Source of the DNA: Bdellovibrionales bacterium
Lineage (GTDB): Bacteria > Bdellovibrionota > Bdellovibrionia > Bdellovibrionales > UBA1609
Direction of reading: 5' to 3'
Length of the DNA: 64,000 bases
NCBI GenBank assembly: GCA_965261545.1
Contig: CBDHDF010000007.1
Coordinates: 512,001-576,000, forward strand
Shown: positions 3,994 through 29,969 of the stretch, one piece after another
How the letters are laid out: the number at the start of each line of letters is the position of its first letter
How positions within the stretch are numbered: position 1 is the first letter of the stretch
The notes under the pieces: model-generated
The model's database searches: none
What the model was told of the DNA's origin: nothing
What the model saw: the letters and a program-made list of their open reading frames with translations, nothing else
Made by a program: the position numbers and the translations under genes

Positions 3994-4974
3994 ATGATGT
4001 GGAGTGCTGTTTTTCCAGGTCAAGGAAGTCAATTTGTGGGAATGGGGAAATTTTTTTTCGATAACTTTTCGTCAACGCGAGAGAAATTTGAAGAAGCCAG
4101 TGACACTTTAAGCTTGGATTTCAAAAAATTATGTTTCACAGGACCCGAAAAAGAACTCATTCTCACCTCTCAAGCCCAGCCGGCCCTGTTGCTAACTTCC
4201 GTGGCGGCCCACGAAGTGATCCAAGAAACAACAGCTATTTCCTTTCACTCCGCCGCTGGCCACTCCGTGGGAGAATATGCAGCCCTTGTCACTGGTGGAA
4301 GCCTCCAATTTCACCAAGCCCTTCAAGCCGTGAGAAAGCGAGGAGAGTTTATGCAATCGGCAGTTCCTCCAGGAAAGGGGGGCATGCTCGCTATACTGGG
4401 CCTTGAAGCCTCCCAAGTGAACGAACTCTGCCAATGGGCTGAAAAAGAGTCGGGCCTCTCCCCCCTAGAACCCGCCAATTTCAACTCTCCCACCCAAGTC
4501 GTCGTCAGTGGAACCACCCCTCTTGTGAAGTGGGTTCAAGAAAATGCATCACGCTTCTTAAGTCAACTCAACAAATCTACCAAACGAGTCAAATTCATCC
4601 CCCTCAAGGTCTCAGCCCCCTTTCACTGCTCCATGATGGAGCCTGCTGAAAAGAAAATGGCCCTTGTCCTAGAGAAAATGGAGTTTAAAAAGCCCCTCTA
4701 TCCCATTATTCAAAATCACACAGCCACTCCAACAACAGACCCCTCTCAACTGCGCACTCACCTCATTGCCCAAATTTCAGCTCCAGTTTTATGGGTCGAT
4801 TGCGTTAAAAAAATAAAAGAAACAGGAACGAAAAACTGCCTCGAACTCGGCCCAGGCAAAACCCTGGGGGGACTTATAAAAGCCATTGACAAGGAAAACA
4901 TAAAGACATTCCATATATCCTCTCTAAAAGACTTAAAAACTATTGAAGGACAAGTGAAGAAGGACAAGCCATGA
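3994..4974 (+). CDS. fabD: malonyl CoA-ACP transacylase
   Basis: FPGQGSQ, GHSVGEY and VSAPFHC motifs. Confidence 0.97.
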   Translation: MMWSAVFPGQGSQFVGMGKFFFDNFSSTREKFEEASDTLSLDFKKLCFTGPEKELILTSQAQPALLLTSVAAHEVIQETTAISFHSAAGHSVGEYAALVTGGSLQFHQALQAVRKRGEFMQSAVPPGKGGMLAILGLEASQVNELCQWAEKESGLSPLEPANFNSPTQVVVSGTTPLVKWVQENASRFLSQLNKSTKRVKFIPLKVSAPFHCSMMEPAEKKMALVLEKMEFKKPLYPIIQNHTATPTTDPSQLRTHLIAQISAPVLWVDCVKKIKETGTKNCLELGPGKTLGGLIKAIDKENIKTFHISSLKDLKTIEGQVKKDKP

Positions 4975-5726
4975 ATTTAAAGGGTAAAAATGTTTTAATC
5001 ACCGGAGGAAGCCGAGGCATAGGGGCTGGCATTGTCACTTTTCTCGCTCAACAAGGGGCTCGCATTGCCTTCACCTACACCTCTCGCCTCGAAGCCGCTC
5101 AAAGTATTCTTCAAAGTCTGCCGAATCAATGTCAGAGCCAAGGCCAAAACCATGCCCTTTTTCAAATGGATATTTCCAATGAAAGTTCCGTTTGTGAAAC
5201 CGTCGCTAAGATTCTCGCCGAATTTAGCCCCCTCCACGGTCTTGTCAACAATGCGGGAATCACCAAAGACCAACTGCTCCTTAAAATGAAAACCGCTGAC
5301 TTTGACGAGGTCATTCAAACCAATCTGAGGGGAACTTACCTGTGCACCAAATCTGTGCTCAAATCTATGATAAAGGCTCGCCAAGGATCCATTATCAACC
5401 TCACCAGTGTCATTGGGCAAAAGGGAAACCTTGGCCAATCCAACTATGCCGCCAGCAAAGCGGGCATTGAAGGCTTTTCAAAATCCATCGCCCAAGAGGT
5501 CGGCCGCCGCCATATTCGAGTCAATTGCGTCGCCCCAGGATTTATTGAAACAGAGATGACCCACGAGTTGAGTGAAAACCACAGGACCGACATCCTCCAA
5601 TCTATCCCCCTCGGACGCATGGGCCAAGTCTCTGATATTTCCCAAGTGGTGGCCTTCTTACTCAGTGATGGAGCAACTTATATCACCGGCCAAACTATCT
5701 CTGTCAATGGTGGCCTATATATGTAA
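4971..5726 (+). CDS. fabG: 3-oxoacyl-ACP reductase
   Basis: TGGSRGIG, NNAGIT and YAASKAG motifs; fab operon context. Confidence 0.97.
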   Translation: MNLKGKNVLITGGSRGIGAGIVTFLAQQGARIAFTYTSRLEAAQSILQSLPNQCQSQGQNHALFQMDISNESSVCETVAKILAEFSPLHGLVNNAGITKDQLLLKMKTADFDEVIQTNLRGTYLCTKSVLKSMIKARQGSIINLTSVIGQKGNLGQSNYAASKAGIEGFSKSIAQEVGRRHIRVNCVAPGFIETEMTHELSENHRTDILQSIPLGRMGQVSDISQVVAFLLSDGATYITGQTISVNGGLYM

Positions 5727-5981
5727 ATATTTGAAAGTAAATATTTGAAATTTAATATTATTGAGCGTAGGGTCATCAAATCCCTTGACAAACTAACTAA
5801 AAGCATAGAAAGAGGCTACGCAAGAAAGACAAGCAAGGCAAGAAAACAAAGAGACCTTGCCATTTAAAAAAGTTATGTAAGCAGTATGTATATATGTATA
5901 ATAGCAAATGGATGTAAAATTGGAATGTAACAGTTCAACACCCATCACCTAGGGTGAAGAACAAATGGGAGAAAATTCACA

Positions 5982-6275
5982 GTGTCTATTCAACCTAAAG
6001 TTAAAAAAATTATTGAAGAACAACTGGGAGTGGATTCAGAGCGCATTAAACCAGAAGCCTCCTTTATCGAAGACCTAGGAGCTGATAGCCTCGATATCGT
6101 AGAGTTGGTCATGGCTATGGAAGAAGAATTTGACCTTGAAATACCCGATGAAGATGCCGAAAACCTCAAAACTGTTCAAGATGTCTCCGACTATATCAAC
6201 ACCCATGCCCCCACAGACACGGAATCCCTTGATGAGGACGATGAAGAAGACGACGAAGACCTTGACGAACCCTAA
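5982..6275 (+). CDS. acpP: acyl carrier protein with acidic tail
   Basis: [14 protein letters not shown] motif; GTG start. Confidence 0.97.
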
Positions 6276-20858: not shown

Positions 20859-22757
20859 CCTGAAATCCCTAAAAGTTGTAACTAGGTGTAGGGCTTAAGT
20901 CCTGATTATTGTCTGAGAAGGCCTTCACTTTGATTAAGAGATTGTCATCTCTTCAAAAGCATAGTTACAATATTAACGATGTCATACACTTTTGAGCAAA
21001 AAAATAAGGGAAAAACCTATGTCTATAAAGTTGAAAGCTTTTGGGACAAGGAAAAAAAGCAGGCCAGGCAAAAACGCATCTACCTTGGAAGAAAGGATGA
21101 GTTTACAGGTCAAATTAAGACCAAAAGAAAAAAGATTCCCATAGGCTCCTATAATGTGGGAGCCTTATTTTTCTTAGAGAAAATATGCGAACAACTAAAT
21201 CTTCTAAAAACATTGTCTAAAATTTATCCAGATAATTACGAACATTATTTGCATTTAGCTTTTTTTAAAATAATCAAAAGAGAGCCCTTTTATCTTTACG
21301 ATATGTGGTGTCAAGAAGCTTATGTTTCAAAGAAAAATTTTATGTCGTCACAAAAAATAAGCAATCTCTTATGTGATCTTGGGAGAGATCAAAAAAAGAT
21401 AGAATCTTTCTTTAGCGAATGGATAAGTCAAGTGAAGGGTTCTGGTACGGTAATGTTTGACATCACATCCTTTTCTTCCTACTCTATGAATAATGAATTT
21501 TTAGAGAAAGGTTACAACAGAGATGGAGAGAATCTCGAACAGATAAACTTAGGTCTGATAAGTAGGAAATCTGAAGACAATAAAACTCATACGCCTATAG
21601 CGTACAGAATCTATCCTGGAAGTATACCGGATGTCAAAACTTTATCGAATATTATTGAGATCATAACAAGTTATAAATTAGATTTAGATTGTTTAGTTAT
21701 GGATAAGGGTTTTTCTAGTGTAGAAAATATTAAGGGACTGCATCGTAAGGAATTGAAGTATTTGATACCCATGAGTTTTAGAACAAAACTCTCAAGAGAG
21801 CTTGCTGTGGCTTTAAATGAGAAAATAAAATCTCCATCATGCTCTTTTACTTTTAATGAGGAAATTTATTCGCATTGCAAAGAATCAATAAAAATCGGAG
21901 GATTTGATTGTACGGCTCATATTTTCTTAGACAAAGAAAGAAGGGTTTATGAGGAATCTGTGTTAATGAAAGAGTTGCTTGATTTTATGAAACTCTTTCT
22001 TGAGAAAGATTTGAAATCAGAAGAACAAGCTAGTTCCTATATGAAAGAAACTTTAGGAAATAAAAAAAGGTTTCTCAATATCTCTGATTGCACTCCATTT
22101 AAGATTTCTTTAAATGAAGAAAATATTAATGAAGAATCTTCTACGCTGGGTATTATGATATTAATTACAAATAGTCATGATTTAAAGAAAACAGATATAT
22201 TGAGTTTATATCGAAACAAAGATATCATTGAGAAAGTATTTTTCTCATTCAAGCATGATATTAATGGAAGGAGAAGTCGAGTTCATTCTCTCATGAATAT
22301 GAGGGGAAGCATCTTTATTAATTTTCTCTCTTTAATTTTAATTTCACATATTGATACTGTTATGAAAGATAAGAAGTTATATAAAAAAATGTCTAAAATA
22401 GAAATTTACAAAATGATGGACCGATTAAAATTTTATGAATTAGCTACAGGTGATCTGATGCTTGGAGAGCTGTCTAAAAAACAAAAGGATATTTTTTCAG
22501 CCTTCCAAATAGATGGGCTTCCCAAGACAAAATGATGTTTTTTATCTGTTTCAAATGTGACGGTGGCTGTGGCTACCACTATGCCTCATCTATCCAATGG
22601 AGACGAAGAGGACCTTTCGCAGCAAATTTTTATGAATCATATTAAATATATTAATACTATTAAACCTCTCAAACCGTTGACAGCAGCCAATTCCATAGGA
22701 AGAGAGGAAAGTTAACGCAATACATTAAACCTAGTTACAACTTTTAGGGATTTCAGG
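20859..22757 (+). mobile_element. IS1634-family element type A, complete (1899 bp)
   Basis: 29-bp TIR; TSD GAACTA. Confidence 0.93.
20979..22535 (+). CDS. IS1634-family transposase (type A)
   Basis: FDITS, GYNRDG, MDKGF and YRNKDIIEKVF motifs. Confidence 0.92.
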   Translation: MSYTFEQKNKGKTYVYKVESFWDKEKKQARQKRIYLGRKDEFTGQIKTKRKKIPIGSYNVGALFFLEKICEQLNLLKTLSKIYPDNYEHYLHLAFFKIIKREPFYLYDMWCQEAYVSKKNFMSSQKISNLLCDLGRDQKKIESFFSEWISQVKGSGTVMFDITSFSSYSMNNEFLEKGYNRDGENLEQINLGLISRKSEDNKTHTPIAYRIYPGSIPDVKTLSNIIEIITSYKLDLDCLVMDKGFSSVENIKGLHRKELKYLIPMSFRTKLSRELAVALNEKIKSPSCSFTFNEEIYSHCKESIKIGGFDCTAHIFLDKERRVYEESVLMKELLDFMKLFLEKDLKSEEQASSYMKETLGNKKRFLNISDCTPFKISLNEENINEESSTLGIMILITNSHDLKKTDILSLYRNKDIIEKVFFSFKHDINGRRSRVHSLMNMRGSIFINFLSLILISHIDTVMKDKKLYKKMSKIEIYKMMDRLKFYELATGDLMLGELSKKQKDIFSAFQIDGLPKTK

Positions 22758-24769
22758 GAACTATTATTCTGGTAAGTGGAAAAAAGGCCGCTCATATCAT
22801 AAGGACTCCCGACTTGGTAGGTACTGAAGTAGCCTTGGAGGTGTCGCTACTCCCACCACGGCCTTGAATAAAGCATGGGCGTTGCCTTTGATCTCTGTAC
22901 CAATGCCGTTTCCTTAAGAAAAATCTCTTGAAATCATTAGATAAATCGACAAGAATAAGACTTGTTTTATTTTACACCCAACCCTCAACCAAGGAGTAAG
23001 TCACATGCAATCCAATATTGATCTCGAAAGCCCCCAAATGACGAGTTCGCGTCACAGATGACCATTTTATTCTACCAAAACTTGATTCTTCCTTCAAGCC
23101 AGAGCACCTTGTCGATCCAGAAAAACAAAAAAGGAATCGAAAATTTAATCCTCAAATTTTCTTTTTTACCATTATCTATCTTATTTCCGGAACAAATTAC
23201 GAAGGCTACCAAATCGCTCTTAAGACGGTATGGACTCATTTTGGTGACCTGCTTCTCATGCCAGTCAAAAGCAGTCTCAGCAAGATACGTCAAAGTATTT
23301 CTTACCTATTTTTTAAAAATATCTTTGAATCTCTGATTACAGACTACGAACCATTGAGAAAAACGTTTCATGGCTTTTATATCTATGCCATAGATGGCGA
23401 CCAATTAGCACTTCCTCGCTCTAAAGATCTTTTAAAGGAGGGTTATTGTGGGTACCCTTGCCCAAATGAGATGGAAACTCATTTCTTACGTATGTATCTA
23501 TCTCATGCTTATGACGTTTTATCGGGTGTGACAAAGAATCTTTGCTATTCTCCCGCTCTCAACGAAATCGCCAATGCTATTCAAATGATAGGTAGTTTCT
23601 GTCCAGAAAGGCCCATTTTTTGTTCTCTGACACTCCCCATTGAGCCTCCCAATGCCTCAATGGGGGAGTGAGAGTTGGAGATTTGCCACACAAACTCTAC
23701 AGATTAAGGGGAAAAAGGTCTTTAAGCGACTTGCGCCCTAGTTTTTTCGATTTGAAGACGCACCCCTACCTTTGGAAGATTTTAGCACCTTCGACCTGGT
23801 CCATTGCTGTTATTCCTAATGGATAAATTTAGGTGACAGTTGATAATTCATGTCTTGCCAAGACAACAAAATTATAGGCACAAACGGCATTCTTTACATA
23901 CCTCTTAAAACCATCATGCCCTTTCCAGTAAGCAACTCTCATACCAAAACATCTCTTAAGGAATGAAATAACAGCCTCTATTCCGGCTCTCCAATTGAGA
24001 AGATTTTTAAAGACCCAAGCACTTTTAACCATCTTTAATATTTTCATTCCTTTTTTTTCTGGGAAGCAAACATCTTTAGCCCCCATCTCTTTGGCCTCTT
24101 CAAGATTTTCTTTTGAAGCAAACCCACCATCTGCACTTACTTTTACAGGGCAAGCCCCATAGGTTTGTGTCACTGAATTCATAACTTTTAAAAACATATC
24201 AGAGTCTGCGGGGTTGCCATCAGGGATCTGACAATCTAAAATCATGTTGCTTTGCCCTGAGGTCAAAAAGATTTTATGCCCAAACTCGACTTCTCTTTGC
24301 CCCTTTACAATAATGTCTGTATGCGGTTCAAAGATGGATAGGACCTTTTTTTCAGAAGATACTTTTTTCCCCTCAATAACTCTTTTTTGAGTTTGAAAGA
24401 TGATTTTTTCCAGGTAGAAGGCAACATTTTCTAACTGTTTTAGACTCTTTTTCAAAGCATTCATCTTCACACATTTTTGTTCTTTTTTTATCTTTCTGAT
24501 GGTATCAGGTAATCCTTTGTTCAATTTGGTAGCGATTTTTAAAAGCTCCTTATAGCAAGGTAGTCTTTCCGCATCATTTTTGGAATTATTAATTTTGTAA
24601 AGCAAGGTTTTTGCTCTCTTAAGATCTTCTCTTGAAATAAGTCGCCAAAAATCTTTCATGACATTTTTACGAACTTTTTTAAATTCTCTTTCTGTAACTC
24701 TTATGCAGTCATATAAAAGCGATGCATCCGTTGGATGATGAATATTTGATCACTCATGTTGATACCCCC

Positions 24770-26815
24770 TTAGTAACGTAGCTTTTTAATTGATCCGGAC
24801 TTAAGTTTTTTAAAGTCAGATATGGTTTTTTTCTTATCTGGAAAGAGATAAGCCTTTGTTTTCTCGTGTTTTTTGACAATGATCCTCCCTTGTTTAATAT
24901 GGTGATAAATCCAATGAACTTTAACATCAATAAGTGCTGCAATTTGAGATGTTGTGAGGCTTCCCTCGACTTTGGTCGGAAAAGAGTGCTTTCGATTCCG
25001 ATAGATTTTATTGTTTAGTCTATAGGACTTCACAGTATTTCTGAGAAAAGTGGTATCCATTGGTGATCTGAATCCTTTTTGGGTCAATAGTTTGGCAATA
25101 TCTTCATCAGACACCCCAAGCTTGACCTGCTGCGCAATTATTTTCTTTATCGTTTCAGAAGATGACAGTTCATCAAAAGATCCAACTTTGATTGGAATGC
25201 TAGCTTCTGTTGTATCTCCTCCAATCCAAACAATTCTCAGTGCAACCATATCTCTTTTCTTTCTGTGAATGACAACCTTTTCAACCAATGTTCTAAGAAT
25301 TTTCTTTTTCATGTCTTTGGTCAATATCTTATCCTCCCATAGCGAAGGTAGTTTTTGATTCAAATCTGAAAATTCTCTTTTCATTTTTTGAGAGATCACA
25401 GTTGGAATACGCTGTTCATTCTTAACCCTCTCTAGGTGATCTTCGGCTTTTTTAAGTATTACTAAAGCCTCTTCCCATTGTGTTTCTAATTCATCTGCAA
25501 CAAGTCTATTCTCAGGGTCTACTTTGCGATACCTCTTTTCTACCAGTTGAGCTTCATACCTTAAACGCTGAATTTGCTGAATGTGTGATTTGTAAACCTC
25601 TTGGTCAATTTTTGACTTATTTTCTAAAGCCTTGGCATACAAGTCTAGCTCGACAGGGGAAAGAACCTTAAAAAAAGTGTTTACTACATAATCATCGATT
25701 GGATCTGTAGGAATGAATTGGCAAGTAGGTTCCCGATGTTGTTGGCGTAGATAGTTGCATAAGTATCGAGTTGCTGTTTTATACTGCACTGACATTTTGT
25801 GGCCACATTCTCCACAATAGACTATCCCATGTAAGAGGGCCTTACCAGGGCGAGGTATGCCTCTTGTTTTATTACGAGTATATTCAGTGTAGTTGTCTTT
25901 TAGAATTTCTTGTATTTTTAAGAATGTATTCCAATCGATATATTTAGGATATTTATCTTTCACAACAATTTTCCATTCATTAAGTGGAAGCTTTGTACGC
26001 TTAAGTTTTCCAGCTAAGTCTTTTCTACGGTATTCAGCTTTGCCATATACAAAAGTTCCGCTATAAGCTGGATTCTTCAAAATAGAAAGTATGGCTGCCT
26101 TGGATGTTTTTTTCCAATGAATACTTTTTACAAAATCAACTCTTGGAAGTAAGAGGTTGTTATCGTTAAAAAATCGCGACACCTTACCGGCTGATTTCAG
26201 TTTTAAGAATATAGTAAATACTAAATTTATGCGATCTTGTAAATCTTTATTTGGATCTTTTAGCACTTTACCTTGTTCTGTTCGAATAAAACCAACTGGT
26301 AATTTAAGAGCTAAATCTCCTCGCTTGGCTTTGTTGAGAAGACCTGCTGTTAATCTATTGCGTATCGTAAATAATTCCATTTCTGAGAGTTGACCTTTAA
26401 ACCCGAGTAACATTCTTCCATTAACATTAGAAGGGTTATAAATAGACTCTCTATCAGCAATGAGGCAATTCTTAAAAGCACACAGATCAAGTAATTGGTA
26501 CCAGTCCGTACAGTTTCTAGATAGACGAGTGACATCGTACGATAGAATAATACCAATTTTTTCCAAGGTCACTTCTGCAAGGATATTCTTGAAGCCTTCT
26601 CTAAACTGTATACTACTTCCTGTGATCCCCAAATCATCATCGACAATTTCAATACTATCTTCTTGCCAACCTAATTCAGTAGCTCTTTGCCTGAGTGAGT
26701 ATTGAAGGTCGAGACTTTCTTTGTTTTTGATGGCTTGCTGAGGGGTCGACTGTCTGATGTATATTATGGCTTTTCTCTTTAAGTGAATAGGTGTAATCAA
26801 TTCCGATGTTTTCAT
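24770..26815 (-). CDS. large serine recombinase (resolvase, recombinase, zinc ribbon, coiled coil, C-terminal HTH)
   Basis: YIRQST catalytic motif, TRLSRN, ILKNPAYSG and CGECG motifs; GAGGAG RBS before ATG at 26815. Confidence 0.95.
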   Translation of the reverse strand: MKTSELITPIHLKRKAIIYIRQSTPQQAIKNKESLDLQYSLRQRATELGWQEDSIEIVDDDLGITGSSIQFREGFKNILAEVTLEKIGIILSYDVTRLSRNCTDWYQLLDLCAFKNCLIADRESIYNPSNVNGRMLLGFKGQLSEMELFTIRNRLTAGLLNKAKRGDLALKLPVGFIRTEQGKVLKDPNKDLQDRINLVFTIFLKLKSAGKVSRFFNDNNLLLPRVDFVKSIHWKKTSKAAILSILKNPAYSGTFVYGKAEYRRKDLAGKLKRTKLPLNEWKIVVKDKYPKYIDWNTFLKIQEILKDNYTEYTRNKTRGIPRPGKALLHGIVYCGECGHKMSVQYKTATRYLCNYLRQQHREPTCQFIPTDPIDDYVVNTFFKVLSPVELDLYAKALENKSKIDQEVYKSHIQQIQRLRYEAQLVEKRYRKVDPENRLVADELETQWEEALVILKKAEDHLERVKNEQRIPTVISQKMKREFSDLNQKLPSLWEDKILTKDMKKKILRTLVEKVVIHRKKRDMVALRIVWIGGDTTEASIPIKVGSFDELSSSETIKKIIAQQVKLGVSDEDIAKLLTQKGFRSPMDTTFLRNTVKSYRLNNKIYRNRKHSFPTKVEGSLTTSQIAALIDVKVHWIYHHIKQGRIIVKKHEKTKAYLFPDKKKTISDFKKLKSGSIKKLRY

Positions 26816-26912
26816 ATATAATCTCCTCAATGGCTAAAGTTAAGTCTTTGATGACTTGCTTTTGAATTTCTTTTGGCAGTCTTGGCCAGACATCTTTTGG
26901 TGTAATTGACAT
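26676..26912 (-). CDS. small accessory ORF overlapping the recombinase start
   Basis: GAGGAG-like RBS (GAAGAG) and ATG; overlaps both neighbouring ORFs in operon fashion. Confidence 0.5.
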   Translation of the reverse strand: MSITPKDVWPRLPKEIQKQVIKDLTLAIEEIIYENIGIDYTYSLKEKSHNIHQTVDPSASHQKQRKSRPSILTQAKSY

Positions 26913-27207
26913 AGTTGCTCTTCCAGTTGTTGAGTCAGTGAAATTAGCTCCTGAATTGCAACTATACCAAGTTTGCTTGGGGCCTGCCTATCGTAGAGAT
27001 TGGGGTTCAGATTGGTAGAAGCCAATGGTATGCGTAGCGTCATGTGGTTCTTGTATTGAACAAAAGCAAAAGTAGATTTTTTCTGATTTTTAGGTATGGA
27101 AATCACCTTGAATGACTTCCTATAAAGGGGATGGGAGGGGTCCGTGACCCTTAGCTCTCTAAAACCTCTGTCGTTGACGGGGGTATTAAGTAATGGACTC
27201 GTTTGAT
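26840..27207 (-). CDS. accessory protein (Y4bD/DUF5372-like) lacking its own start; start codon lies at the other end of the element
   Basis: Frame is open to the att core; VTDPSHPLY motif lies upstream of the first GTG (27106); family name is from recall. Confidence 0.7.
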
Positions 27208-28080
27208 TTCGTCACTGTACTGTCCAATCTCATTTTCTTACACGGCTCAATCTTTTGATCTCTTGCATCTGAAACTAAAGAGGCGCTAATAATTCCCCAA
27301 GTTTCTTCACTTATTTGAACAATCAAGTCCTGTAAGGTGGAGTGAGCGTAATTTTCTTCCAATTCAAGGCCCAGAAAAGCTCTGGTGGATACTGAATCGA
27401 CAAGATTAAAGGCTAACGCACGATAGGAAAGACCTCTTATGGATTTAAGAATAGCCACCTTGAGAACTTGCTCCGATGTCATACCAATATCACCAGAATC
27501 TTTCTTTTCTTTAACAAGGTCTTCATGAACCATATGGGCAAACTCTGGATGGCGATCAATGATGTTATTAATTTGCTGCAATTCTGTACTGAGTTGGTGG
27601 TTAGGATATTGGGAAAAGAGTCCCAACTGTGTCTTCTTCAAATGGCGCATAGTCCCCCCTTTGGTGAAAGTTTCTCTTTAATTTTTATATTAACATACGT
27701 TTTTTTGAGGGAAAAAAGTGAGCAAGGATGTCTTTTAAGAAGAAAAAAATCAGAGAGGTTCTCGGAGAACATGGATAAGAATTCTACCTCATAGAGAGGT
27801 TCCCACGCCTCCTAAAACCTACATAAAAAATAAATGAAGAATAAAATATCAAAAATTATTTCTCTGAAAAAACACGTCAAGTATTTTTTGAAGTTGATGC
27901 GCAACGTAATGTTATTTCCCTGAAGGAGGTTTGAAATCACCACGGTGGAAACACAGGTTGATCCAACTCTTCCTCTCATATCAAGTAACCAGTTGATAGC
28001 CACATAAGTCACTGAAAGGGAGGGGCTGTGAAAGGTTCGTCAAGAGAGGGGGGGGGGGGAACTTATTTTATTTTTCCGTT

Positions 28081-29969
28081 GGGACTGTAAAAATAATTGT
28101 GTAACTGCAATTTTTTTCTTAAATCTTAAAGCCACTTATGTGGCTCCACTCCTGGTAAAAAGCACAGTCCCATATTATTCGTCAATGTATAATTGACATT
28201 TTTTCCTTCAAGCGATTTTGTCAGTCACAATGCATTATAAGTTAATGGGGAGGTGGACATCTTCGCTGGTCTATATAATTGGCCTCTTTAGTTACTCTGG
28301 ACTTTTGATTGTATTATGGAGCCGTAATGGGATCATATCAGAACTGGAAAGAACTCAAATAAATAATTATCATCTTGGTTGAAAAAAAATCAGCAATGGC
28401 TCTCTCAAAAAAATGGAAATTCCAATCTCATCAAAGGGTTCATGTGTTTAGGTTCCCATACTATATTACCCCCTTTTTTTTATTTTTTTTAACTTAGGAT
28501 ATTCGAGAAATACCAGAATTGGGATGAAATATGAAAAAAAATGGGAACCCAAATCTGCACCAAGAGGGCATGTATTTAGGTTCCCATACTATATTACCCT
28601 AACCATAGTCTCGGTATTCCAGTACTTCTGTCAACGCCTTAGAGGGGCTTTTAAGCCCCCTTATAAGGCAGGTGGTGGACCTTATTAAAAAACTTAGTTG
28701 TCAAAACGGTCACCGTATTCAATGGCAAACCTGTTCATGGCTGGCTTCCAGTTGTGTAATGGTCGTGTCCATCGCTTAGAGGCCATTTTTATCGCTAAAT
28801 ATACAACTTTTAAAGCCGACCGATCACTGGGAAATATCTTACGATTTCTGATCGCCTTGCGGATCACGCTATTTAACGACTCTATGGCGTTTGTGGTATA
28901 AAAAATCTTTCTGATTTCATCCGGATAATCGAAAATAGTGATGAGATTGTCCCAATTCCTACGCCAAGACTTTTCAATATTCGGATACTTTGAAGACCAC
29001 TTGGTACAAAATTCCTCAAGGGCCTTTTCAGCTTCTGTCAGAGTCGTAGAGCCATAAATGGACTTGAGGTCTTGGGCGACAGCTTTCATATCCTTGGAAG
29101 GGACATAGCGAAGGGAATTGCGGACCATATGGACAATGCACAGTTGTACTTTAGACTTGGGAAAAGCCGCTGAAATGGCTTGAGGAAAACCTGTAAGACC
29201 ATCTACAGAAAATATAAATACGTCTTTCAACCCTCGATTTTGCAGCTCAGTCAAAACACTCAACCAAAACTTTGAACCCTCATTTTCAGAAATCCATAGG
29301 CCCAACAAGTCTTTCTGACCCTCCTCTGTAATACCAAGAGCTAGGTAAATCGCCTTATTAATAACTCTCTTGTCTTGATGGACCTTCACCACGATACAGT
29401 CCAAAAATACGATAGGGTAAGTGCTATCCAAGGGGCGGTTCTGCCAAGCCGTAACTTCATCAATAACAGCATCCGTCACGTTGGCTATCACTGAGTGGGA
29501 TATCTCTGCACCATGGTAAAGGTCTTTGATAGCTCCTTGAATATCCCTGGTCGTCATTCCCCTCGCATAGAGGGTCAGAATACTGTCTTCAAAGCCCTCA
29601 AGACGAGTCTTGCCTTTGGGAATGACTTGGGGCTCAAAGGAGGCACTTCGGTCACGGGGGACCTGAAGCTCCACCTCGCCTTTCTCTCCCTTTATGGTCT
29701 TTCTACTGTAACCATTGCGAGTGTTGGATTTGCGGGTCTCAGACTTCTCATGCCTCTCATAACCTAGGTGATCGTCCATTTCCGCATTAAGAGCTGTCTC
29801 TAAAACAACCTTCATCAGTTGACCCGTTATGTCGGATAAATCCTTTTGGGTCTTGACGCTCTTCGCTAGTTCCTTGCCTATTGTCTTGATATCCATTCTG
29901 CCTTCTCCTTTCAGGATGATAGTTCATCCTAATATGATTCGGCAGTTACACAAAATAGTTTACAGGCTC
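28081..29969 (-). mobile_element. IS256-family element (1889 bp)
   Basis: Imperfect 28-bp TIR; 8-bp TSD TTTCCGTT. Confidence 0.93.
28694..29896 (-). CDS. IS256-family transposase, intact
   Basis: RNGY, VPRDR, VFLD, VDGLTGF, QLCIVH and YTTNAIES motifs. Confidence 0.96.
   Translation of the reverse strand: MDIKTIGKELAKSVKTQKDLSDITGQLMKVVLETALNAEMDDHLGYERHEKSETRKSNTRNGYSRKTIKGEKGEVELQVPRDRSASFEPQVIPKGKTRLEGFEDSILTLYARGMTTRDIQGAIKDLYHGAEISHSVIANVTDAVIDEVTAWQNRPLDSTYPIVFLDCIVVKVHQDKRVINKAIYLALGITEEGQKDLLGLWISENEGSKFWLSVLTELQNRGLKDVFIFSVDGLTGFPQAISAAFPKSKVQLCIVHMVRNSLRYVPSKDMKAVAQDLKSIYGSTTLTEAEKALEEFCTKWSSKYPNIEKSWRRNWDNLITIFDYPDEIRKIFYTTNAIESLNSVIRKAIRNRKIFPSDRSALKVVYLAIKMASKRWTRPLHNWKPAMNRFAIEYGDRFDN

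Follow-up and report, generated by a model that had tools for sequence, protein, structure and literature searches.

In the circle-junction promoter systems of mobile elements (Tn4451, IS911-like elements, ICEclc), the joining of the element ends brings the −35 and −10 sequences together or places them upstream. TnpX of Tn4451 and Tn4453 is a large serine recombinase (LSR), and the junction promoter of the circular form of Tn4451 was reportedly described by Lyras and Rood in 2000. On the excised circles of ICEclc and ICEKp1, junction promoters arise (Pcirc and P3'end, respectively; PMC13023037). In the SSV-type "suicidal" tyrosine integrases (SSV1, pTN3, pT26-2), the attachment site lies inside the integrase gene, which is whole only when the element is circular; a review presents such self-disrupting recombinases as known only in archaea (PMC8371274). 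Here, we analysed 64,000 nucleotides of DNA from a Bdellovibrionales bacterium (assembly GCA_965261545.1, contig CBDHDF010000007.1, positions 512,001 to 576,000 of the forward strand; hereafter the window), which contain a mobile element made of two genes, namely a small open reading frame (ORF) without a start codon, followed by an LSR gene. We propose that the small gene is completed only by the joining of the element ends, and that its product would thereby mark the element as excised; we place the probability of this proposal at about 0.75.

The element splits the transposase gene of an insertion sequence (IS), with a DUF772 match upstream and a DDE_Tnp_1 match downstream. The features on which the proposal rests are as follows, in window coordinates.

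24745-27207, minus strand: whole element, 2,463 bp, with the 6-bp core ATCAAA at both ends
27208..27650, minus strand: N-terminal part (DUF772) of the IS transposase, left half of the target site
27212..27214, minus strand: host TGA in the frame of the small ORF, 2 codons before the core
27202..27207, minus strand: left core ATCAAA, with the crossover AA at 27203-27202
27181..27201, minus strand: left arm, i.e., an 11-nt spacer (27201-27191) and the anchor CTTAATACCC (27190-27181), within the coding leader
26840..27205, minus strand: small ORF body (121 codons and a stop codon), lacking a start codon upstream of GTG 27106
27104..27106, minus strand: first in-frame GTG of the integrated small ORF, from which the product would be 88 aa
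24770..26815, minus strand: large serine recombinase, 681 aa, with Resolvase, Recombinase and Zn_ribbon_recom domains
24769-24765, minus strand: G-run of the right arm, Shine-Dalgarno-like, ending 7 nt before the ATG
24758..24769, minus strand: right arm anchor GGGGGTATCAAC, mirror of the left arm and presumed recombinase-binding motif
24755..24757, minus strand: right-end ATG, which would start the small protein once the ends are joined
24745..24750, minus strand: right core ATCAAA, with the inferred crossover dinucleotide AA at 24746-24745
23829..24744, minus strand: C-terminal part (DDE_Tnp_1) of the IS transposase, right half of the target site

The frame of the small ORF is open from the codon that follows the host TGA (27214-27212), through the core, to its stop (26842-26840), and the first in-frame ATG, GTG or TTG is the GTG at 27106. 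At the other end of the element, the recombinase stop (TAA, 24772-24770) is directly followed by AGGGGGTATCAAC and then by the ATG (24757-24755), which stands 7 nt from the core. In the integrated element this ATG reads 18 codons before a TAA inside the IS. When the two ends are joined by script through one core, the same ATG falls in frame with the small ORF, and three right-end codons plus the 121 codons of the body encode a protein of 124 aa. The initial annotation, which had located the recombinase stop, the ATG, both core copies and GTG 27106, and had announced both the 18-codon peptide and the 124-aa in-frame product, was correct on all of these points.

The recombinase gene begins with an ATG at 26815, 24 nt after the stop of the small ORF, and is preceded by GAGGAG 7 nt upstream. 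Integration leaves this gene intact, in contrast to the small ORF, and it has its own Shine-Dalgarno sequence and ATG. The 686-aa ORF harbours a catalytic domain (PF00239, E 6.8e-20, residues 21-172), a Recombinase domain (PF07508, E 2.7e-18) and a zinc ribbon (PF13408, E 3.1e-09), and the Y-x-R-x-S motif with the nucleophile serine is kept in 28/28 aligned recombinases. Judging from its resolvase, Recombinase and zinc-ribbon domains, the window enzyme is a large serine recombinase.

From this organization we propose the following order of events. The attachment site lies within the 5' end of the small gene: the right end of the element supplies codons 2 to 4 together with the ATG and the Shine-Dalgarno-like run upstream of it, the left end supplies the remainder of the gene, and the crossover AA closes codon 4 and opens codon 5. 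In the integrated state the small ORF would have no usable start, so the recombinase alone would be made. The LSR would then excise the element, and the joining of the ends, in a circle or in a head-to-tail tandem, would complete the small gene, with 12 nt between it and the recombinase stop. It would then, on the circle, be translated from the recombinase transcript. Integration would take the gene apart again, thereby switching the small protein off, and our best guess is that this protein favours or targets re-integration, or prevents re-excision. Such a switch would be the translational counterpart of the junction promoters on IS and Tn4451 circles. Circle formation, translation across the junction and an action of the small protein on the recombinase are the steps that we infer.

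Evidence comes from the in-silico circularisation of related elements, which the initial annotation had proposed as a test. We collected 79 loci from species-representative genomes (129 pattern matches, 97 confirmed) and 80 metagenome loci among the matches listed (at least 600 matches, at least 410 confirmed), thus examining 160 loci with the window. Geometry alone determined the position of the joint, in the order anchor, 11 nt, dinucleotide, 11 nt, anchor. The right anchor was 12 nt long, the left one was its mirror image over 10 nt, and neither contained the ATG or the core. Both anchors were found in 90 loci, 83 of which have equal crossover dinucleotides at the two ends; these 83 evaluable loci come from several phyla and form 36 clusters when their small proteins are grouped at 70% identity. 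As the dinucleotide is equal at both ends and yet varies between elements (AA, GA, TT, TA, AT, AG, CT), it serves as an internal check on the position of the joint. Among the seven loci with both anchors and unequal dinucleotides, L077, L098 and L181 look like false right anchors on truncated copies, and L163, L172 and L137 belong to elements already present in the count, as variants of the flank or at contig edges.

The following lines of evidence were obtained from these loci. First, behind the recombinase stop of nearly every locus with a complete recombinase there follow, in this order, a GGAGG-like run, TATCAA(G/C), an ATG, six bases and CGAA. At the left end, the small ORF invariably stays open up to a conserved A-ACG-A, upstream of which the sequences diverge, several copies having a stop that abuts it. 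Second, in all 83 joined loci (83/83) the right-end start codon and the small ORF share one frame, uninterrupted by stops as far as the conserved motif, and a Shine-Dalgarno-like run (loose motif set) precedes the start. The initial annotation had reasoned that a meaningless arrangement would be in frame about one time in three, and the observed frequency is far above that. In 75 loci, which represent 35 clusters, the start is provided by an ATG that immediately adjoins the anchor. Third, the distance from the left anchor to a conserved Asp codon takes seven lengths, from 45 to 69 nt, and is a multiple of 3 in the 128/128 loci with a good anchor, which indicates that the leader is coding. Together with the exactness of the ends in all genomic copies (see below), the presence of the same layout in every evaluable relative means that the arrangement of the ends exceeds chance.

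Fourth, the remaining evaluable cluster (8 metagenome loci) has AAA, AAG or AAT in place of the canonical triplet. In this clade an ATG (6 loci) or a GTG (2 loci) stands 21 nt upstream with a GGGAGGA run, and its in-frame position follows from the geometry of the anchors, from AT or AG dinucleotides that agree between the two ends of each locus (8/8), and from the constant 9-nt and 12-nt flank registers. It is difficult to account for such a relocated start other than by selection that maintains an in-frame start at the right end. The members of this clade (L132, L141, L152, L158, L162, L169, L171 and L178) have their right ends about 2415 nt after the motif of the small protein and target a different conserved gene; an apparent second, degenerate copy of the arm motif holds their upstream ATG or GTG and overlaps the recombinase stop. 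In another subgroup (L031:3563-4076, L133, L144, L148, L187), about 500 nt of extra G+C-rich sequence lie between the recombinase stop and the right arm.

Fifth, the two arms of the attachment site are not under the same constraint. Joining in silico yields a site that is imperfectly palindromic, GGGGGTAT...ATACCCCC, around the final AA of the core, which is the expected shape of a serine-integrase attachment site; the mirrored arms, together with the equality of the dinucleotides in 83/90 loci, agree with an LSR-type site (an imperfect inverted repeat of about 50 bp with a central 2-bp crossover). In 37 distinct arm pairs (the uncertain L051, L055 and L089 were dropped from an original set of 40), mirror symmetry between the arms covers positions −30 to −12 and −3 to −1. 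It includes the G-run and TATCAA(G/C), and the Shine-Dalgarno-like look of the G-run may be a second use of an att-site sequence. By contrast, no base of the right-arm ATG (−11 to −9) varies (37/37; 2.0 bits for each base), while its mirror positions on the left arm carry only 0.46, 0.29 and 0.60 bits.

The element is present in eight full copies in the genome, which are approximately 100% identical, in addition to partial copies. Counts of 30-mers gave 10 attL, 9 attR and 46 empty sites, and counts of 56-mers gave 5 left ends, 9 right ends and 37 empty sites. The junction k-mers show that the ends are exact in all copies and that all junctions and empty sites correspond to one and the same site of an IS transposase gene, to which 10/10 left ends and 9/10 right ends adjoin. 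The element is thus discrete, site-specific and recently active. A search for the small protein in the genomes of 40 relatives returned no match (0/40), so the element is not vertically shared.

Several side observations were made on these copies. An IS variant with a G for T 20 nt upstream of the core (window 27227) occurs at 5/10 filled sites vs 2/46 empty sites. Part of the copy number of the element may come from hitch-hiking when the carrier IS is copied, and the occupancy of both IS variants suggests at least two integrations or a conversion. Damaged copies also occur (C11:326875-327970 and 329986-331391, C11:191226-193742, C10:8446-8588): about 19 nt of the left end are missing from one, another has an interruption near position 1160, a third differs in its right flank, and a further one is a 143-nt stub of the left end. 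In Logan contigs (four runs of one sample, X1-X4; window 24600-27350), which show the element, the IS flanks and the joint of the empty site, the depth of the element vs that of the empty-site joint differs among runs (X1, 29.7 to 59; X3, 39.3 to 139.6), which could reflect mixed strains or a changing occupancy, contig depths being a poor measure. In the neighbourhood, two long ORFs (20979-22535, plus strand, 518 aa; 28694-29896, minus strand, 400 aa) resemble transposases of other insertion sequences, indicating that the region is dense in mobile DNA.

The relatives of the element lie mostly antisense within reverse-transcriptase (RT) genes of group II introns (flanks of L031-L109; for example, L033:8490-9164 and 4898-6019, L060:949-2169 and 4634-5215). 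These insertions cut the RVT_1 model between positions ~78 and 80, and 27/30 flank ORF pieces match RVT_N, RVT_1, GIIM, Intron_maturas2 or HNH, one matching SNF2 and two having no match. Judging from these targets, homing of the element family is apparently directed at conserved motifs within other mobile elements.

These flanks bear on another explanation, in which the small ORF would be translated while integrated, as a fusion or read-through product of the interrupted host gene. The small ORF is indeed open up to the end of the element, the window element has the same direction as the IS transposase gene, and gene callers extend many relatives into the flanks. Nevertheless, in the window an in-frame TGA stands 2 codons before the core, and the transposase frame, which is a different one, stops 5 codons inside the element. 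Furthermore, most relatives are antisense to the RT genes that they interrupt. Out of 83 integrated copies, 45 lack any in-frame ATG, GTG or TTG from the upstream stop to the motif, and in several a stop codon lies right against the crossover; an in-frame ATG occurs in the flank of 8/83, and any flank start with a Shine-Dalgarno-like run in 4/83. This explanation is therefore very improbable, and a frameshift or fusion from the IS transposase was rejected because of the in-frame TGA and of the antisense position of the relatives.

The points that weigh against completion of the small gene by end joining are the following. No joined-end (attP) sequence occurs in the assembly, either by 30-mers or by 56-mers (0 in both counts), and none was found in the Logan contigs mentioned above, a weak negative as contigs drop rare forms. 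A promoter scan of the integrated sequence returned 8 promoter-like sites vs 8.8 expected, none of which stands out. In the family comparison, 70/160 loci fell outside the evaluation (one end off the contig, truncated copies or weak anchors); the 36 clusters share ancestry and have inherited their geometry, and hence are not 36 independent trials; and the position of the joint rests on the assumed 11-2-11 geometry, checked by the matching dinucleotides only. The last of the seven loci with unequal dinucleotides, L051, has a 1-nt insertion that puts the junction out of frame; the insertion lies in the left arm between crossover and anchor (L051:880-960), in what is possibly a dead copy or an assembly error. 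Since the G-run is mirrored in the left arm, its conservation alone is, as far as the arm sequences tell, no argument for translation. Finally, an ATG, GTG or TTG is found inside the element before the motif in 21/83 integrated copies, mostly as the GTG of a Val just upstream of it, so that some relatives could make a shorter protein while integrated, and GTG 27106 of the window is preceded by AGGAAG, making a truncated product possible.

The last points are those on which the most serious alternative draws, namely that the Shine-Dalgarno-like run and the ATG would be a recombinase-binding site only, while initiation at an internal or non-canonical codon such as GTG 27106 would yield the small protein from the integrated element. 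The mirrored G-run and TATCAA(G/C) would then be plain att-site sequence, and in about 25 database relatives the called start lies just ahead of the motif. However, a binding site alone accounts poorly for an ATG that is invariant on one arm and nearly unconstrained at the mirror positions of the other, for its replacement in one clade by an in-frame ATG or GTG 21 nt upstream, and for a leader that stays open and undergoes insertions and deletions only in multiples of 3. Moreover, the product from GTG 27106 would be devoid of the invariant L29, of the near-invariant D24, P25, H27 and P28, and of the predicted first beta-strand, and the Val of GTG 27106 is not a conserved start position among relatives. 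We consider this alternative unlikely. The frame test, the conservation of the ATG on one arm only, the relocated start and the loss of the conserved motif from the GTG-27106 product all point, at the level of sequence, to the recombination-gated start that the initial annotation had put forward.

We also characterized the family and fold of the small protein. The window protein has no Pfam match even at E≤10, while an exhaustive HMMER search retrieved 232 representative relatives at E≤0.001. Of 53 aligned relatives, 29 match DUF5372 (PF17342) at E≤1, the best at 6.3e-07. The description of the protein as DUF5372-like in the initial annotation thus holds for the relatives and not for the window protein itself, and the link to DUF5372 is a remote relationship, at family level only, as judged from these profile matches. 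The relatives share a leader, (R/Q)-T-x3-L-(N/D)-T-P, and a motif, E-V-T-D-P-x-H-P-L-(F/Y)-G. The window member is divergent (about 40% identity), with a shorter leader and another target. The called N-termini of the relatives in databases lie 2 to 123 residues before the motif, with anything from no residue to over 100 unrelated ones ahead of the leader, as expected if gene callers pick chance starts in the flanking DNA. On rhizobial plasmids, the homologous small ORF is mostly without an annotated feature (6/13 best places are "none"; plasmid hits H1-H13, L191), as would be expected of a gene that annotation pipelines overlook because it has no start codon.

Given the family alignment, AlphaFold2 predicted a structure with a mean predicted local distance difference test (pLDDT) of 81, comprising a disordered leader (residues 1-18), four strands (19-62) and a helix (83-100). 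According to this model, the small protein is a DUF5372-related SH3-like barrel plus a helix. Foldseek against the PDB gave no match at E≤0.001, and generic SH3-like barrels (PsaE, NdhS, KOW, Tudor) were found at E 0.04-0.2.

These data also bear on the possibility that the small ORF is a decaying remnant, its missing start reflecting the death of the gene. It has no start codon, is often uncalled by pipelines and, in the window, encodes a protein devoid of Pfam match, as a dead gene might. A dying gene, however, would hardly have 232 representative relatives, remain open and in phase in 128/128 loci, encode a confidently predicted fold, keep the residues of its motif while the wobble positions vary, and be identical in all full copies of the genome. 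We therefore regard a remnant as highly improbable.

We guess that the small protein acts on the recombinase, probably as an LSR cofactor. The predicted complex between the LSR and the small protein reached 0.60 vs 0.00 for the best of three controls, with at least 77% of the contacts shared between runs and a partner pLDDT of at least 62. In the calibration, the mark for a complex was reached by 116/157 solved complexes and by 2/215 mismatched pairs, and at 0.60 or under it was reached by 18/157 solved complexes only and by both passing mismatches. Hence, the model hints that the small protein may bind the LSR. Because a classical recombination directionality factor (RDF) made only after excision would block re-integration, we favour a cofactor for integration or targeting.

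A broader proposal, to which we would give somewhat less than even odds, is that these two-gene serine-recombinase transposons, widespread among bacteria, would sense their excision through an attachment site lodged in the translation-initiation region of a gene. The SH3-like, DUF5372-type protein would be made only from the circle, bind the LSR and license or target re-integration, in the reverse of the logic of phage RDFs; the elements would be hyperparasites homing to conserved motifs in group II intron reverse transcriptases, and in the present case in an IS transposase.

If the small gene is indeed completed by end joining, the switch would be purely translational and gated by recombination, and one stretch of DNA would combine the roles of recombinase substrate, ribosome-binding site and coding sequence. 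No regulator would be needed for the element to "know" its state, inserted or free, and the omission of the small gene by annotation pipelines would be explained. The principle of junction promoters and of archaeal split integrase genes would be extended to a bacterial serine-recombinase family present in many phyla. It could also provide a new kind of cofactor and a compact state-sensing module for LSRs, which are important genome-engineering tools. With its 10 filled and 46 empty identical sites, the genome would be a convenient natural test system.

In a full-text literature search, with most subscription journals outside its coverage, we found neither a description of a start codon and a gene body split by the ends of an LSR element, nor a mention of DUF5372. 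In S. fredii pSF83666a, a DUF5372 gene adjoins recombinase genes, like the small ORF studied here, the likeness being that of the family (the 29/53 relatives matching PF17342), as the window protein itself reaches no Pfam threshold. Like the phage RDFs (PMC12286644), the small protein is encoded by the element beside an LSR, to which it is weakly predicted to bind. No likeness in sequence (Pfam) or in fold (Foldseek vs PDB) to a known RDF was found, and, as an RDF produced after excision alone would prevent re-integration, an integration-side or targeting cofactor fits better.

As in the SSV-type integrases, an attachment site lies inside a gene of the element that would be whole only in the circular form. 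The SSV-type systems are archaeal, use a tyrosine recombinase and split the integrase itself, whereas the present element is bacterial, uses a serine recombinase and splits an accessory gene; the attachment site lies in that gene, after the recombinase stop, and not inside the recombinase gene. Also unlike the split of the SSV-type integrases, the split falls here only 11 nt (3 codons plus 2 nt) after the ATG. As in Tn4451/Tn4453, ICEclc and ICEKp1, the joined ends would create an expression signal that is missing from the integrated form. In the Tn4451/ICEclc type, a promoter is reportedly assembled or moved upstream of the recombinase gene, whereas in the present element a ribosome-binding site, a start codon and the first codons are split from an accessory gene. 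The recombinase gene is intact in both states and, as read from the sequence, the switch would be translational, unlike in the junction-promoter systems.

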